A stretch of 61,770 bases of DNA from an uncultured Methanosarcinales archaeon (GCA_964566535.1 CAZMIO010000006.1:1-61770), one strand, 5' to 3'. Shown: positions 16,078 through 21,903, counted from the stretch's first letter. Translations and numbers: made by a program. Notes: a model not told the origin generated them from the letters alone.

Positions 16078-16858
16078 ATTTTTCTTTGTTTTTTATCTTG
16101 CCTATTATTTCTGAGATGTAGAATCTTAGCCAAGCTATAGAGATTAGTACGATGATTGTGTAGATGATTATCTGGGGCCTTTTGTATGAGATTATGAATG
16201 GGTTTATTATGAAATAGATTATTGTAAGGATGACAATGTTAATTAAGTAGGGTAGGAATAGTAGGTGGAATTTTTTGATTCCAAGTTTTATTGTTTGGGC
16301 TATTGTTTTGAAAATCTTTTTTTCTTTGTTAAATGTAGTTAATAAAATCATTGTGAAGTATAATAATAAGATTGAAAAAATAATGATTGAAGATGTTTGT
16401 GTTTGGGTGTTTACTAACATGTACACTGCATAGAATATCAAAGCCCAGATTGCATACCATGTTAACCTTAACAGTAGGAATTTTTTGTAGAACTTTTTGT
16501 CCAACTTTGTTTTATGGATAATGCTCCAGATCTTTCCTTTGAAGTAAGTTGCAACTAGGTAAGTTGAGATTAAAGCAAGTAGGAGTGTGGCTACTATCTT
16601 TACAGTTATCATTCTGAATGTAGATAATGCTTCTTCGGCTTCTGGTTGAAGTGAGTTTAGTTTTGTAATATCTGTTGTTTGTATCTTTGCCATCAAGGTA
16701 GATGTTTCTTGAAGTTGGTAGGCGAAGAAAATTATTGAGAAATAAGTTAGGCCGATAATTAGGATTAATATTATGTAGAAGATGATGTCATTGAGAATAG
16801 TTAGTAGAAACTTTCTATCTAGGCTTTTGAAAGTTTTGGAAAATACTGAGTTTTTCAT
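16067..16858 (-). CDS. Polytopic membrane protein, 263 aa
   Basis: About 6 hydrophobic segments; starts 1 nt after the metG stop. Confidence 0.8.
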   Translation of the reverse strand: MKNSVFSKTFKSLDRKFLLTILNDIIFYIILILIIGLTYFSIIFFAYQLQETSTLMAKIQTTDITKLNSLQPEAEEALSTFRMITVKIVATLLLALISTYLVATYFKGKIWSIIHKTKLDKKFYKKFLLLRLTWYAIWALIFYAVYMLVNTQTQTSSIIIFSILLLYFTMILLTTFNKEKKIFKTIAQTIKLGIKKFHLLFLPYLINIVILTIIYFIINPFIISYKRPQIIIYTIIVLISIAWLRFYISEIIGKIKNKEKFMV

Positions 16859-16859
16859 C

Positions 16860-18833
16860 TTAACTTATCTTTGTGTTATCTTTGAATTTAGCTTCTTTGT
16901 CTGCTTTGATGTCTTCTTTGTCTGTTGCTAGAACTTGGTCATTGTATGTAATCTTATTGTCTTTTAGCAGGATTTCTAATTTAAGGAAATTGTCGAATGT
17001 GATTTGTTCTTCTGAAGATTCTAAGTCTCCTGCTTTTACTTTTGTTCCTGGTTCTGAGCCTTTTGCTAGTAGGACTCCACAAGTTTCTTTGTTCGATGCT
17101 GCTAGAAGCATGCCTTGGCTTTCTACTCCTCTGAGTTTGGCAGGTTTTAGGTTTGTTACTACAACTATCTTTTTACCTATTAATTCGTCTTTTTTGTAAT
17201 GTTCTTTTAGTCCTGCAACTAACTGCCGTTTTTCTGTTCCTAAGTCTATTTTTAGGACTAATAGTTTGTCAGCATCCGGATGGTCATTTACTTCTTTTAT
17301 TTCTGCTACTTTTAGGTTTAGCGGGAATTGTTCTTGTTTTGTTTCTTCCATTTTTTTGAATAACATCTCTGCTTTGTTGACTTTATGATTTTTTAAGTTG
17401 AAATTTAAGTCTTTCCATTTTAGGTCTGCTACATTTAGTTGTTTTTGTAGTTCTTCTGAAAATTTAGGCATGATAGGCCCTATTAGTATTGATAGATTCT
17501 TTGCAATGTTTATGCATGTTCCTAAAACTTTGTTTACTTTTGCTTTGTTTTTTTGTTTCCACGGTTCGTTATCTTGGAAATATTTGTTTCCGATTGCCGA
17601 TACTGCTAGAATCTCGTCAATTGCTTTTTTGAAATCAAATTTTTCGTAGGCTTTTTTAATTTGTTTTATTTTTTCTTCAATTTCTTTTGTTACTTTATTT
17701 TTGTTAATTGTTTTGAATTTTGAGTCATGGTTTTTGTTTGTGAATGAAATTACTCTGTAACAGAAATTTGATAGGTTGCCAACTAATTCGGTGTTTATTC
17801 TATCTACTAATATGTCTTCTGAATATTCTCCATCTCCTTCTAATGGCATTGCACTTAAGATGTAGAATCTTAATTGGTCTACTCCATATTTTTTTATCTG
17901 CTGGAATGGCTCAATTACATTACCTGTTGATTTGCCCATTTTTGTTCCTTTTGAAAGTATGAAACCGTGGACAAACAGTTTTTTTGGCAGTTGCAGGTTT
18001 GCTGATATTAACATTGCTGGCCAAAATGCTGCGTGGAACCTTAAGATATCTTTTCCAATTATGTGGATGTCTGCAGGCCATGTTTTTTTGAACTGTTGTT
18101 GGTCGGTTGAGTAGCCAACCCCGGTTATGTAGTTTGAGAGAGCATCGCACCAGACGTACATTATCTGGCTAGGGTCTTCTGAGACTGGGATTCCCCATGG
18201 TAAAGTTGACTTTGGTCTTGAGAATGAGATGTCTTTTGCTTCCTTTAGGAAAGATAGGATTTCGTTTTTTCTTGATTTTGGGATTACTTTGTAAACGTCT
18301 GATTGAATTATTTTTATAACTTTTTCTTTGTATTTTTCAAGTTTGAAGAAATAGTTTTCTTCTTCAACAGATTCAATGTCTCTTGTTGGGTGGTTTGGAC
18401 ATTTTCCATTTTCTAATTCTTTTTCTGTTTTGAATGCTTCACAGCCAGTGCAGTAAAGTCCTTTATACTTCTTTTTGTAGATGTCTTCTGATTCTACTAG
18501 TTTTTTCCATAGCTTTGTTGCGCCGGTGTAATGGACTTTTTTGTTTGTTGTTCTGATGAAGTTGTCGTATTCAATATTTAGCTGTTTGTATAGGTCTTTG
18601 AATACTGCAACGTTATTGTCTAAGAATTCTAATGTATCTTTTCCTTGTTTTTGAGCTGTTTGGTAGTTTTTTAATCCGTGCTCATCAGTGCCTGTCTGGA
18701 AGAATACGTCTTTGCCTAATAGTTTGTGGAATCTTGCCAGAGCATCTGCTTGGACGATTTCTAATGTATGCCCTAGGTGGGGCGATGAATTAGGATATGC
18801 GATAGCAGTAGTAATATAAAATTTCTTAGCCAT
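16860..18833 (-). CDS. metG: Methionyl-tRNA synthetase with C-terminal tRNA-binding domain
   Basis: FYITTAIAYPN, HLGH, GTDEHG, CxxC...CPNH knuckle, YVWCDAL, IGKDILRFH, KMGKS, HPDADKL...RGVESQGMLL. Confidence 0.98.
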   Translation of the reverse strand: MAKKFYITTAIAYPNSSPHLGHTLEIVQADALARFHKLLGKDVFFQTGTDEHGLKNYQTAQKQGKDTLEFLDNNVAVFKDLYKQLNIEYDNFIRTTNKKVHYTGATKLWKKLVESEDIYKKKYKGLYCTGCEAFKTEKELENGKCPNHPTRDIESVEEENYFFKLEKYKEKVIKIIQSDVYKVIPKSRKNEILSFLKEAKDISFSRPKSTLPWGIPVSEDPSQIMYVWCDALSNYITGVGYSTDQQQFKKTWPADIHIIGKDILRFHAAFWPAMLISANLQLPKKLFVHGFILSKGTKMGKSTGNVIEPFQQIKKYGVDQLRFYILSAMPLEGDGEYSEDILVDRINTELVGNLSNFCYRVISFTNKNHDSKFKTINKNKVTKEIEEKIKQIKKAYEKFDFKKAIDEILAVSAIGNKYFQDNEPWKQKNKAKVNKVLGTCINIAKNLSILIGPIMPKFSEELQKQLNVADLKWKDLNFNLKNHKVNKAEMLFKKMEETKQEQFPLNLKVAEIKEVNDHPDADKLLVLKIDLGTEKRQLVAGLKEHYKKDELIGKKIVVVTNLKPAKLRGVESQGMLLAASNKETCGVLLAKGSEPGTKVKAGDLESSEEQITFDNFLKLEILLKDNKITYNDQVLATDKEDIKADKEAKFKDNTKIS

Positions 18834-19926
18834 TTTTATTCCTCCTAATTCTTAATAGAATGTTTTCTTCTGCTGTTTTTAAATCTTCGCATCTTTTCTG
18901 ATGTTTCATGAAGGGTTTGATTAGTTTTAATATTCTTAGAAGATCTTGTTTCTTATTGATAGAAACTCCCCACATGTCTTGATTTTGATTATATTTACCA
19001 GCAATTGCTTCTAATTTATATATGCTATGAATGTTTAGTGTTTTTAGTTTTTTATGGGTAATCCTTAATAGATTTTTATCATATGACCTTATTCTTAGTC
19101 TTGCCCTACTGGAATAAACTCCTATGTTTCCTTCTGCATCGATGTAACCAGCTAAGAAAGCAAGAAAATATTTATCCTTTCTTAAAATCCAATCTTCGAC
19201 ATTATCTTTTTTAGGTAACAAGAAAGAGAAACTTTTGTTTAATAAGATTTCAAAACGAAAGACACCATTCTTATCTTCTTTGATATTGGGCTTACCATAT
19301 TCTCTAAAGATCCCATGAAGGAGATTAACCTGTTCAATCTTTGTAGTATTTGTTTTAACTTTAATTAATTTGTGATCCCTTTTTACATTTAAGTCACCCA
19401 ATCTAAATCCAATTAGGTATGCTTTTTCAATTAAATATCCACTGAAATCTTTTTTTGGATAAATTGTACAAGCTTCACTTAGGCTTCTTGTAGTTATCTT
19501 ATGATCCTTCATTTTGTCAAATATAATGCTAGGAGAGCAAGAATATTTCTCGGCTATTTTTGAATATGACAGTTTTTTATTGTGATAAAGATCAATCAAT
19601 CTTTCTTTTTGGATTGGTACTCTTTTGATTGGACGTGTTTTGATATTATATTTCACAAGTTTGCTATAAACTGTACGTGGACCACAATTCATAATTTTAG
19701 CAATCTTATATGTGGATAAGCCTTTGTTTATGTATAAATTCTCAAGAAGCTTTTTACTTGTCTTAATTGCTTTCTTTGGATATCTAATCTCTATTTTGTA
19801 TTCTTTTAATCTTTTCTGAATAACTGTAGGATCACATTTTAAGATTTTAGAGATGGTATATGTACTTAGTTGTTTATCCTCATATAATCTAACTAATTTT
19901 TTCCTTGATATTATTATTTTTTTCAT
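18826..19926 (-). CDS. LAGLIDADG homing-endonuclease-like protein with three N-terminal HTH repeats (start probably ATG 19926)
   Basis: Three L..LY....LS...IA.....S/P..V/I...L....I..R repeats; motifs AYLIGFRLGD and AFLAGYIDAEG; GGAGG SD; stop overlaps the metG start by 8 nt. Confidence 0.9.
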   Translation of the reverse strand: MKKIIISRKKLVRLYEDKQLSTYTISKILKCDPTVIQKRLKEYKIEIRYPKKAIKTSKKLLENLYINKGLSTYKIAKIMNCGPRTVYSKLVKYNIKTRPIKRVPIQKERLIDLYHNKKLSYSKIAEKYSCSPSIIFDKMKDHKITTRSLSEACTIYPKKDFSGYLIEKAYLIGFRLGDLNVKRDHKLIKVKTNTTKIEQVNLLHGIFREYGKPNIKEDKNGVFRFEILLNKSFSFLLPKKDNVEDWILRKDKYFLAFLAGYIDAEGNIGVYSSRARLRIRSYDKNLLRITHKKLKTLNIHSIYKLEAIAGKYNQNQDMWGVSINKKQDLLRILKLIKPFMKHQKRCEDLKTAEENILLRIRRNKNG

Positions 19927-19956
19927 TATAAACTCCTCCAGAGAACCCATCTTTGT

Positions 19957-20066
19957 GAGATTTCTTTCAAGTTTTAAAGAAATCTCTTCTGGGAAAAAAG
20001 GGATGTTTAGCGAAACTCCATAATTGATTTTTGATGTAGTCGAAAATCATTATTTGGGAGTTTTGC
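19957..20066. other. Two hairpins in the leader of the endonuclease gene
   Basis: GAGATTTCTTT-N8-AAAGAAATCTC (19957-19986, perfect 11 bp) and a long imperfect stem at 20010-20066. Confidence 0.75.
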
Positions 20067-20094
20067 GTGTCCTCTTTTTAGAATTAGTCTACCT

Positions 20095-20190
20095 TTAAAT
20101 ATCTTTGTTGTAAGTGTCCAGTACTAAAAATCTGTTAGGATATGCTATTGCTGTTGTTATGTAAAATTTTTTGTTTTTTAGTTTAACCAC
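20095..20190 (-). pseudogene. metG: Stranded original 5' end of metG (VVKLKNKKFYITTAIAYPN, then unrelated sequence and stop)
   Basis: 13/13 aa identity to MetRS residues 3-15; TATA box ATATATAAATA ~24 nt upstream of GTG 20190. Confidence 0.9.
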
Positions 20191-20269
20191 CTAATAAATA
20201 AGTAGAAATTAGGTATTTATATATGTTGCTGAAAAATGAGAAAATTCTTATATCCACTTAAATTTCCAA

Positions 20270-21127
20270 TTGAAAATGAATGCATGGAGCTTTTTGCAGC
20301 TTGAAGGATTAGGAAGATCAGATGTACCTGATGAAGAATTACATTATAAATTATCATCTCAGACATACAATAATATAAGAGATATTACTTTGAGAGCAAC
20401 AGTATTGGAAAACGGAATGCGTGTAATTCTACCTTATAAAAATGGGCAGCTTTGGGTACCAGATCCTTTTTACCCTGACAATCAAGGTGCTCAAACAAAA
20501 GAAATGAATGTAAGCCTTGATTGGTCTGATACAGGTTTTAATAGGGTACCTATCAGTGAAGATCCACTTATCACTGCTAAACGCATGAAATTTATTGAAG
20601 CAGGGGAGGGAAACCTCCTTCTAGGAACAACTTATGAATATGGTTGGGTTAGTGTAGCTACATTTAAAGACCTTGAAAGTGATAATCCAGTTGATTCTGT
20701 AGAAAATATCAATATCGAAGGAGGCTTAATGTATGATGGAGAAAATAATTTAGCTAGATATGAATTCCTTTGTCCAGGTTTAACAAGTTTTCCGTTTAGA
20801 GGTACAATTTATTATAGTGGTTGGAATGGAGTTGGATTTGGGTATACATCACATCATGAGCGAGGGCAAATTCCAGAAGAATTTACACTTGAAGCTTGTC
20901 CAATTGGAAGTAGCAGTGAGGCTAGGCAGCTAGAAAGTGAAGTTCTTAGGTCAGAGCAAAAAAGAAGAGAAGTAACAGAAGAAACACTTCCAAGAATTGA
21001 AGGAGCGCAAGATTTACCAGAAACAATAACAGTTCCAGAGTTGGAGTCTGTAATCTCAAAATTACTTAGAGATGTTGCTCTGGGTGAACCATCAGATCCA
21101 TTTGACTATTTTAGAGAAGTTAGATAA
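20270..21127 (+). CDS. Hypothetical protein (ORFan), ~285 aa
   Basis: Long ORF with natural composition; no recognised motif. Confidence 0.7.
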   Translation: MKMNAWSFLQLEGLGRSDVPDEELHYKLSSQTYNNIRDITLRATVLENGMRVILPYKNGQLWVPDPFYPDNQGAQTKEMNVSLDWSDTGFNRVPISEDPLITAKRMKFIEAGEGNLLLGTTYEYGWVSVATFKDLESDNPVDSVENINIEGGLMYDGENNLARYEFLCPGLTSFPFRGTIYYSGWNGVGFGYTSHHERGQIPEEFTLEACPIGSSSEARQLESEVLRSEQKRREVTEETLPRIEGAQDLPETITVPELESVISKLLRDVALGEPSDPFDYFREVR

Positions 21128-21138
21128 TAAAAATGATA

Positions 21139-21375
21139 TTATGTTTGAAGAGCGAATTTCTTTCCAATAAACTTTTCTTTAACTTGTGCAGGAATACCAG
21201 ATGGTTTTTCAGTAAATCCTAGATTAAAGGCTGTTTGTGCTGAAATCCAGACTGCATCCTTGCTTTTTTGTGCAACCTTTTTAGACTTTTCTACGAAGAA
21301 GAGTAAATATCCTGTAATATTATCAATTGTCTTAGTTTTAACATCAGTTATTTTTCCTAATTCTAATCCACTCAT
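21139..21375 (-). CDS. Hypothetical protein, 78 aa
   Basis: GGTGA SD; follows the zinc-ribbon gene. Confidence 0.65.
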   Translation of the reverse strand: MSGLELGKITDVKTKTIDNITGYLLFFVEKSKKVAQKSKDAVWISAQTAFNLGFTEKPSGIPAQVKEKFIGKKFALQT

Positions 21376-21394
21376 TTTAGATCACCTTTTTATT

Positions 21395-21793
21395 TTATTT
21401 TTTCTTAGGTACTTTCATCTTTTTTGTTATGGCTATTTTTTCTCCACAGGCACCACAGGGGAAGACATAGGATTTAACTCCTTGGTAAGTTTTTAATTTG
21501 TATTCTGTTTGGGCTTCTCCGTCTTTTTCGCAGTGTGGGCAGGTGTATTTGACGCTTACTTTTAGTTTTTCTTCTGCTTCTTCATTAGTCATCTGTGCTT
21601 TACATTTAGGACATTCAAAGTATTCTGCTTTTTTGTCTGGTTTTCCGTTCTTTTTTATTGGTTTACCGAATCTTCCTTCATTGCACTTTTCGCATAGGGG
21701 TCTTAGTACCCATGCCATTGTTTTTCCGCCGCCTATTGTTCTGTTTGTAAAGTATAAGCAATCATCCATTGATTTTGGTTCTTCTAAAGTCAT
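21395..21793 (-). CDS. Multi zinc-ribbon protein (start revised to MTLEEP at 21793)
   Basis: Four CxxC pairs (CEKC, CPKC, CPHC, CGAC); GGAGG SD before ATG 21793. Confidence 0.85.
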   Translation of the reverse strand: MTLEEPKSMDDCLYFTNRTIGGGKTMAWVLRPLCEKCNEGRFGKPIKKNGKPDKKAEYFECPKCKAQMTNEEAEEKLKVSVKYTCPHCEKDGEAQTEYKLKTYQGVKSYVFPCGACGEKIAITKKMKVPKKK

Positions 21794-21903
21794 TTTATTG
21801 TTCCTCCTTAGTTGATTTTTAATTAGTACTTTTTCCAATACGGTTAAATTTGTTTTCCATTAGTTGAAATTGTTTAATTTTAAATAAAGACGGTTCCATA
21901 CTT

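Follow-up and report, generated by a model that had tools for sequence, protein, structure and literature searches.

Homing endonuclease genes (HEGs) lying within a protein gene without an intron are known from fungal mitochondria, namely as the mORF hybrids of Allomyces macrogynus (atp6) and Glomus sp. (atp6, atp9, cox2, and nad3). As far as the available part of that report goes (PMC3630166), these hybrids are the nearest described system to the element examined here, which interrupts the methionyl-tRNA synthetase (MetRS) gene metG of an uncultured archaeon. The element is located on the minus strand of a 61,770-nt stretch of DNA, hereafter the window (GCA_964566535.1, CAZMIO010000006.1:1-61770; recorded as Methanosarcinales). 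In both cases, an endonuclease open reading frame (ORF) sits in a protein gene without an intron. Further likenesses, taken from the same part of the report (PMC3630166), are an inserted gene end in phase with the gene (foreign in the fungi, foreign-looking here), a native end displaced as a duplicate, and an inserted end that diverges more in DNA than in protein. The latter was read as horizontal transfer in the fungi, and the same divergence is seen here. The fungal elements, as described there, replace the 3' (C-terminal) end of mitochondrial genes, whereas the metG element replaces a 5' end with promoter and start codon on an archaeal chromosome. The cassette must, therefore, also supply translation start signals. 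The metG enzyme also differs from the fungal ones in its three N-terminal helix-turn-helix (HTH) repeats and in belonging to a family that extends across DPANN archaea and bacteria of the Candidate Phyla Radiation (CPR).

Intron-less homing is also known for free-standing phage endonucleases of the T4 SegF/SegG/MobE type. In those parts of the accounts that were available, the likeness lies in a gene beside its target, spread by double-strand-break repair, and co-conversion of the flanks. Phage enzymes of the SegF type are GIY-YIG or HNH nucleases, lie between genes, and are not known to leave a stranded gene end. The archaeal enzymes I-DmoI, I-Tsp061I, and PI-PfuI have the same monomeric double-LAGLIDADG fold as the enzyme described below and also address highly conserved targets, but they are encoded in rRNA-gene introns of the bulge-helix-bulge (BHB) or group I type, or in inteins, and require splicing; none of these signatures was found here. 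LAGLIDADG-bearing insertion sequences were reported for CPR bacterial rRNA genes, and the accessible sections of that study (PMC11270868) point to a likeness in host groups, LAGLIDADG enzymes, and highly conserved sites. According to the same sections, the difference is that these insertions are intron-like and are removed from transcripts (PMC11270868); the ends of protein genes are not dealt with there. In the portions available of two studies (PMC11270868, PMC6125680), the LAGLIDADG genes of CPR and archaeal rRNA genes lie within introns. Free-standing HEGs are generally limited to intergenic sites, according to a 2026 article available in part (PMC13619312); the metG element escapes this limit. 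A full-text literature search (supplements excluded) retrieved no description of such an arrangement for an archaeal or bacterial aminoacyl-tRNA synthetase gene, for metG, or for the ends of protein genes in DPANN or CPR. This agrees with an earlier note on this DNA, which knew of no such case for an archaeal aminoacyl-tRNA synthetase gene. The element is a mirror image, at the 5' end and in a prokaryotic chromosome, of the fungal mORF hybrid, and it belongs to a large, apparently undescribed cross-domain family.

With a probability of about 0.8, we read the locus as a free-standing LAGLIDADG homing cassette, intron-less and intein-less, that invaded metG just 5' of the HIGH-motif codons. The earlier note had proposed the same, that is, a LAGLIDADG element in metG with a replacement 5' end, and codon usage, empty alleles, the lack of an intron or intein signature, and a homologue survey support this proposal. 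The metG gene of the window is the sole copy in the 1.45-Mb genome and encodes 657 aa between an ATG at 18833-18831 and position 16860. Its native body (16860..18788) was assigned by Pfam to a MetRS with the HIGH motif, the anticodon-binding domain, and the C-terminal tRNA-binding domain. The endonuclease gene (18826..19926) precedes it and is separated by a spacer of about 170 nt, recognized by reading the sequence, from a stranded native metG 5' stub (20095..20190). The stub comprises a GTG at 20190 and 31 codons up to a TAA at 20097-20095. A TATA-like box of the native metG promoter (20215..20224) was read directly about 30 nt before this GTG.

The inserted cassette spans 1345 nt (18789..20133) and consists of a left end, the spacer, the endonuclease gene, and the replacement metG 5' end; its boundaries are ambiguous by the length of a 39-nt repeat. 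It sits after native codon 19 and brings a new ribosome-binding site, an ATG, and 15 codons which are foreign-looking by codon usage and now form the start of the working gene (18789..18833). The ribosome-binding site, AGGAGG (18841..18846), is located within the endonuclease coding sequence, 7 nt 5' of the ATG, and the ATG overlaps the endonuclease stop codon (18828-18826) over 8 nt. The native GTG start has no Shine-Dalgarno-type site, unlike the metG ATG (AGGAGG) and the endonuclease ATG (GGAGG).

Stub codons 7-19 (20172-20134) and metG codons 3-15 (18827-18789) encode the same 13 residues, KKFYITTAIAYPN. Homology between the two copies stops after the Asn codon, three codons ahead of the His in HLGH. 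In eight of the 13 codons, the copies are distinguished by a single synonymous change at the third position, and there are no non-synonymous differences. These features, including the TATA box, the start at 20190, the break shortly before HLGH, and the 8-nt overlap, had all been listed in the earlier note, and every coordinate held on re-reading. Only 21% of single substitutions in the 13-codon stretch are synonymous, so that eight out of eight would be expected by neutral drift with P ~4e-6. The two copies, therefore, acquired their differences while both were working gene starts, in different lineages. A scan with a position matrix of the metG N-terminus gave the stub a score of 40.5 as compared to a maximum of 4.3 over 114 control scans, and the stub in the window is without decay.

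Short direct repeats can also result from replication slippage or metagenome mis-assembly. The metG start could thus have been duplicated locally in tandem, or the assembly could be at fault, and the endonuclease gene between the copies would be unrelated and there by chance. We consider this extremely improbable. An unselected duplicate would not display synonymous changes only, and the layout recurs in loci of other species (see the survey below). The stretch was present in 20 sequencing runs from 16 studies, all of them marine, seawater, or vent metagenomes; three of these runs are possibly the source of the assembly. Contigs from two non-source runs, which belong to independent studies, span the endonuclease/metG junction (18360-19808 and 18000-19804) as well as the stub/left junction (20013-20800 and 19973-20157) with 0 differences. 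Since both junctions are bridged in two independent studies, the locus is not an assembly chimera, a possibility the earlier note had raised.

The question of which copy is native was addressed by codon usage. The metG body favours A- and C-ending codons (ACA 75%, GCA 79%, TAC 76%, and AAA 91%). All eight codon variants of the stub are those preferred by the body, with a sum of log ratios of 9.56 versus the body and 0.02 versus all long ORFs of the window. Of the first 15 codons of metG, 10 end in T, compared with two of the 15 in codons 16-30 and 94 of 642 in the rest (Fisher p = 1e-5). The switch in codon usage coincides with the end of the repeat. These statistics agree with the earlier impression that the stub has body-type codons, while the mostly T-ending working 5' end looks imported.

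Related metG loci point in the same direction. The nearest MetRS relatives in the genome sample, G038 (locus L013) and G023 (L014), have no endonuclease homologue. In these empty alleles, stub-like sequence runs straight into the TCA…CC.CAT.TAGG.CAT motif of the body, as does the working copy of the window. In G023, metG likewise has a TATA-like box, and its GTG start lies six codons ahead of KKFY, as in the stub; the box at 20224-20215 aligns with the one preceding this GTG. Over 36 nt, the G023 allele matches the stub at 33 positions and the working copy at 29. The comparison with both empty alleles lends modest support to a native stub. Judged from codon usage and from the G023 allele, which agree, the working metG 5' end appears to be foreign. 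The neighbouring genes on both sides show synteny with HEG-free relatives; those downstream, encoding proteins of 263 and 382 aa, match G038.

Stub and endonuclease might also be parts of an intron, whether of group I, group II, or the archaeal BHB type, or of a decayed intein, with the stub as exon 1 or the N-extein that is spliced to the body. The closest solved structure of the enzyme, the intein endonuclease PI-PfuI, and the structured spacer would fit this idea, as would a relative (L054) in which the stub reaches exactly to a frameshifted junction that splicing could bypass. Moreover, the stub ORF and the endonuclease ORF share one reading frame (20190-19950 = 240 nt), but four in-frame stops lie between them; the shared frame may be due to chance (1 in 3) or may be a relic of an earlier fusion. 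A permissive Rfam scan of positions 16500-21500 (E ≤ 1) revealed no intron family and only one chance match to a long non-coding RNA, and no Hint or intein family was matched (E ≤ 0.01). No BHB-like pairing was found between the two junctions: the duplex energy was -9.9 kcal/mol versus a shuffle mean of -8.5 kcal/mol, and 30% of the shuffles were as low. The endonuclease gene begins with a start codon of its own, preceded by GGAGG, and is flanked by stops on either side; the working metG copy, too, has an AGGAGG and an ATG of its own. In addition, 39 of the 57 relatives that could be tested have an intact metG without a stub above the control maximum, and the layout is shared by bacteria, where BHB splicing does not exist. 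The proposed absence of an intron and an intein is thus borne out by these searches, and we consider a spliced element very unlikely. The endonuclease gene appears to be free-standing rather than embedded in an intron or intein.

For the endonuclease, ATG 19926 is the most probable start (366 aa), since this codon is preceded by GGAGG 8 nt upstream and the resulting protein agrees with homologues at its N-terminus; the ORF finder chose 19950, from which the frame is open, but this start is less likely. Pfam assigned several HTH families to residues ~20-145 and LAGLIDADG_3 to residues 263-344 (30.4 bits, above the cut-off). An AlphaFold2 model built with 46 homologues (mean predicted local distance difference test score, pLDDT, 90.8) displays three three-helix repeats followed by two alpha-beta-beta-alpha-beta-beta-alpha half-domains (residues ~173-373). 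The best solved matches in Foldseek, all with a probability of 1.00, were PI-PfuI, I-Tsp061I, I-AniI, and I-DmoI; a profile search also matched 1dq3. All 46 aligned homologues retain, without variation, the acidic residue that closes each motif, namely D186 in LIGFRLGD and E273 in AGYIDAEG, and we take these two to be the catalytic residues. The gene is intact, is single-copy in the 1.45-Mb genome, and, by motifs and modelled fold, would encode a monomeric double-LAGLIDADG enzyme that is presumably active.

A protein search yielded 634 homologues among 8000 scored candidates, with P0002-P0009 as the closest (64%); their source names, where given, include Woesearchaeota, Nanoarchaeota, Patescibacteria, and Nealsonbacteria. 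Scanning one genome per species resulted in 80 loci. In 58 of them, metG follows the endonuclease on the same strand, in 57 cases within ~170 nt of the match, and the same cassette layout was found in bacteria too. Stubs were sought by a position-matrix scan of the 450 nt upstream, with 114 reverse-strand or shuffled scans as controls. A metG N-terminal stub above the control maximum was present in 18 of 57 testable loci, the window included; none was detected in the other 39. Weaker, decayed stubs are visible by eye in several loci (L055, L061, L068, L049, and L110). The point at which the stub ends varies among relatives, between the Asn codon and the codons for HL. The window and several sub-lineages share the left-end motif GGACAC, which directly follows the stub.

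Endonuclease and metG form one in-frame ORF of 806-1014 aa, without a stop between them, in five loci (L048, L052, L055, L061, and L085). Thirteen database proteins of 666-1004 aa (P0121-P0133) combine HTH/LAGLIDADG and MetRS domains, some of them annotated just as methionine--tRNA ligase. These fusions, together with the AGGAGG and ATG embedded in the 3' end of the endonuclease gene and the lack of a terminator-like site (a weak test), suggest that metG is co-transcribed with the endonuclease.

The window's genome is archaeal, as indicated by the presence of ribosomal protein S8e and by control matches in archaea only, and the host is a DPANN-type marine archaeon. A scan of metagenome contigs with the endonuclease protein of the window revealed two identical copies and one remote match. 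Viral contigs contained two distant matches only (29-30% identity) and gave no sign of a viral carrier.

The trees of endonuclease and MetRS are in conflict, and the element is patchily distributed among close relatives. For the MetRS tree, the N-terminus through the HIGH motif was removed, loci with fewer than 250 body residues were left out, and nine HEG-free relatives were added. On this tree, the window groups (98) with the HEG-free G038 and G023 and the HEG-bearing L042 and L049, so that three of five members carry the element. The endonuclease of L043 belongs to the clade of the window, yet the MetRS of L043 groups (100) with a HEG-free genome elsewhere in the tree, and L044 and L045 possess a different type of MetRS. 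Forcing the six hosts of the window's endonuclease clade together on the MetRS tree, a group named from the endonuclease tree before this test, cost 951 log-likelihood units (approximately unbiased test, AU p = 3.7e-84).

The following sequence of events would account for the locus. Insertion of the cassette would have separated the native promoter, the GTG start, and the first 19 codons from the gene and left them as a dead stub. The metG body would now be translated from the imported start, so that neither RNA nor protein splicing is needed. The enzyme would cut uninvaded metG in the highly conserved DNA for Y-x-N-x-x-P-H-L-G-H. Repair of this break from an invaded allele, with the stub and upstream DNA as one arm and the gene body as the other, would then copy the cassette in. 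With the working 5' copy diverged, the repeats would be less prone to deletion of what lies between them, and repair bypassing the cassette would be less favoured.

Several observations weigh against this reading. Only two differences between the copies fall within the 14 nt 5' of the break, which leaves the proposed immunity by recoding unexplained; more simply, the "recoding" may be just the allele of the donor lineage. The comparison with G038 does not discriminate, since stub and working copy each match it at 30 of 36 positions. In L057, L052, and L048, stub and working metG are of different MetRS N-terminal types (TTPIYY versus TTAIDY), in either direction. Either the stubs were carried with the cassette there, or long 5' tracts or whole genes were replaced, and a native stub would not be universal. 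The element is present at metG in none of 60 order-level relatives. Contigs of four runs contained no 20134/18788 joint, which would represent an empty allele, and so gave no sign of current mobility in the species of the window; since rare variants are lost from contigs, however, the result does not speak for the absence of such alleles. Finally, 77 of 81 homologue match regions are free of internal stops and always occupy the same position relative to metG.

The last observation could also fit a domesticated function. Namely, the protein could be an immobile DNA-binding derivative of an endonuclease that is kept as a regulator or partner of metG, with the stub as a fossil of an old insertion. 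The in-frame fusions in five loci and 13 database proteins, the palindromes before the endonuclease start codon, and the lack of an empty allele in the four-run contigs from this population could be explained in the same way. A protein of this kind, however, would hardly account for invariant D186 and E273, for an undecayed stub, for sister clades at unrelated genes, or for the presence of the element in three of five members of the closest MetRS clade versus 0/60 order-level relatives. The tree conflict (the AU result above) is likewise at odds with an immobile gene. Domestication is, therefore, improbable in our view, and a mobile homing cassette remains the preferred reading.

Six species-level loci (L047, L050, L053, L054, L058, and L063) form one endonuclease clade (96), sister to that of the window. 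In all six, metG has one extra base that falls precisely between the codons for HL and those for GH in the HIGH motif (CAT CTT C GGC…, e.g. L054:4659-4680; T instead of C in L053), and in the +1 frame the ORF of the metG body stays open for 270-699 aa. In L054, the repeat shared by stub and working copy ends exactly at the extra base. The context CUU-CGG-C resembles known +1 frameshift sites, namely CUU-AGG-C of Ty1 and CUU-UGA-C of prfB. As a guess from this resemblance, the extra base could be a programmed frameshift site and perhaps also an immunity mark. CGG usage in the six loci is low but non-zero, which is not decisive for a hungry-codon mechanism.

The remaining 22 of the 80 loci are associated with other genes: eight with the 3' end of groEL, in convergent orientation (L079, L082, L091, L096, L098, L100, L108, and L112), five with the 5' end of lepA (L087, L109, L113, L118, and L120), two with the 3' end of uvrA, which has a duplicated C-terminus (L099 and L121), one with the duplicated 3' end of iscU/nifU (L106), one with the 5' end of an ileS-like gene (L097), and five with other or unclear neighbours. 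In the endonuclease tree, the groEL (99), lepA (94), and uvrA (94) loci each form one clade. Duplicated ends are clear for uvrA (2/2) and iscU (1/1) and marginal for groEL (2/8), where they fall in low-complexity tails. No significant duplicated end was found in the five lepA loci, with L118 being suggestive (34 versus a control maximum of 37), or in the ileS locus.

A second end-replacement cassette was identified in the genome of the window (G000, contig C2; locus L135:1183-2608, minus strand). There, an archaeal Nre gene ends in a 21-residue tail; next comes an HTH-LAGLIDADG gene of 381 aa, and four codons past the endonuclease stop the tail recurs in diverged form (12 of 21 residues identical). 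This 3'-end layout is like that of the fungal mORF. The 1.45-Mb genome contains 15 LAGLIDADG_3 matches. Besides metG, clear flank duplication among these 15 places was found only at C2:114263-115414. About nine of the frames, of 224-426 aa, may represent further free-standing endonuclease genes. Several of the matches lie in very long frames (1140, 857, and 1231 aa) and look like inteins.

The most far-reaching interpretation of these loci is a cross-domain superfamily, in DPANN and CPR, of active HTH-LAGLIDADG homing cassettes that, each with a replacement gene end, invade the ends of essential genes (metG, lepA, groEL, uvrA, iscU, ileS, and nre). Some lineages would have become entangled with their host gene, either as endonuclease-MetRS fusions or by the one-base CUU-CGG-C insertion, which would block cutting and force programmed +1 frameshifting. 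We put this forward tentatively and, taken as a whole, think it rather unlikely.

The spacer of the cassette is structured. A second TATA-like box (20093..20102) overlaps the stub stop codon, and its position is conserved in the window, L044, and L049; relatives with short spacers have a TATA-like run after the GGACAC motif. This box is a possible cassette promoter. Hairpin 1 (19995..20079) ends in a U6 tract and has a minimum free energy of -20.8 kcal/mol (z -4.9). Its conservation extends to L044 and L049, and of the 25 predicted pairs three are compensatory. Hairpin 2 (19957..19986) is a perfect 11-bp palindrome with a TTTAAAA loop (z -3.0), located just 5' of the endonuclease ribosome-binding site. 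L044 has a palindrome of different sequence at the equivalent place. Hairpin 2 may act as a promoter or operator; the roles of the spacer hairpins as promoter, operator, or attenuator are guesses. No other copy of the spacer was found in the genome. A scan for sigma-70 promoters and intrinsic terminators, which is not informative for an archaeon, gave three promoter-like sites versus 9.1 expected and 0 terminators. Hairpin 1 is better conserved among the window, L044, and L049 than is the endonuclease protein (~55% identity), and fragments of it, 33-39 nt long, turn up in metagenome contigs that are otherwise unrelated.

Two further observations concern neighbouring genes. In many DPANN-type genomes, whether or not they contain the endonuclease, a 147-aa zinc-ribbon protein (21395-21838 of the window, weak match to DUF7560) is repeatedly encoded next to metG on its upstream side. 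A decayed endonuclease homologue (37-45% identity, frameshifted, one TAA) is located in another genome (G027:C60; L005:1304-2445) just past the end of a gene that we take, from its motifs, to encode a membrane pyrophosphatase-like protein; no room for a stub was seen at this place.

The metG element and its relatives represent a third route of invasion in prokaryotic chromosomes, besides the use of an intron or intein and of an intergenic site: they bring a spare gene end. In this way, even the termini of genes that are essential and highly conserved become accessible to the elements. Foreign gene ends, and at times probably a large part of the gene, would thereby pass between lineages and even between domains, and the promoter and start codon of an essential gene are rewired by the cassette. 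Also, this route explains annotation oddities in metagenome-assembled genomes of ultra-small archaea and bacteria, such as short pseudo-starts, over-long fused "MetRS" proteins, and apparent frameshifts in metG. The family offers a large natural panel of LAGLIDADG enzymes with guessable targets, the DNA for the HIGH motif among them.

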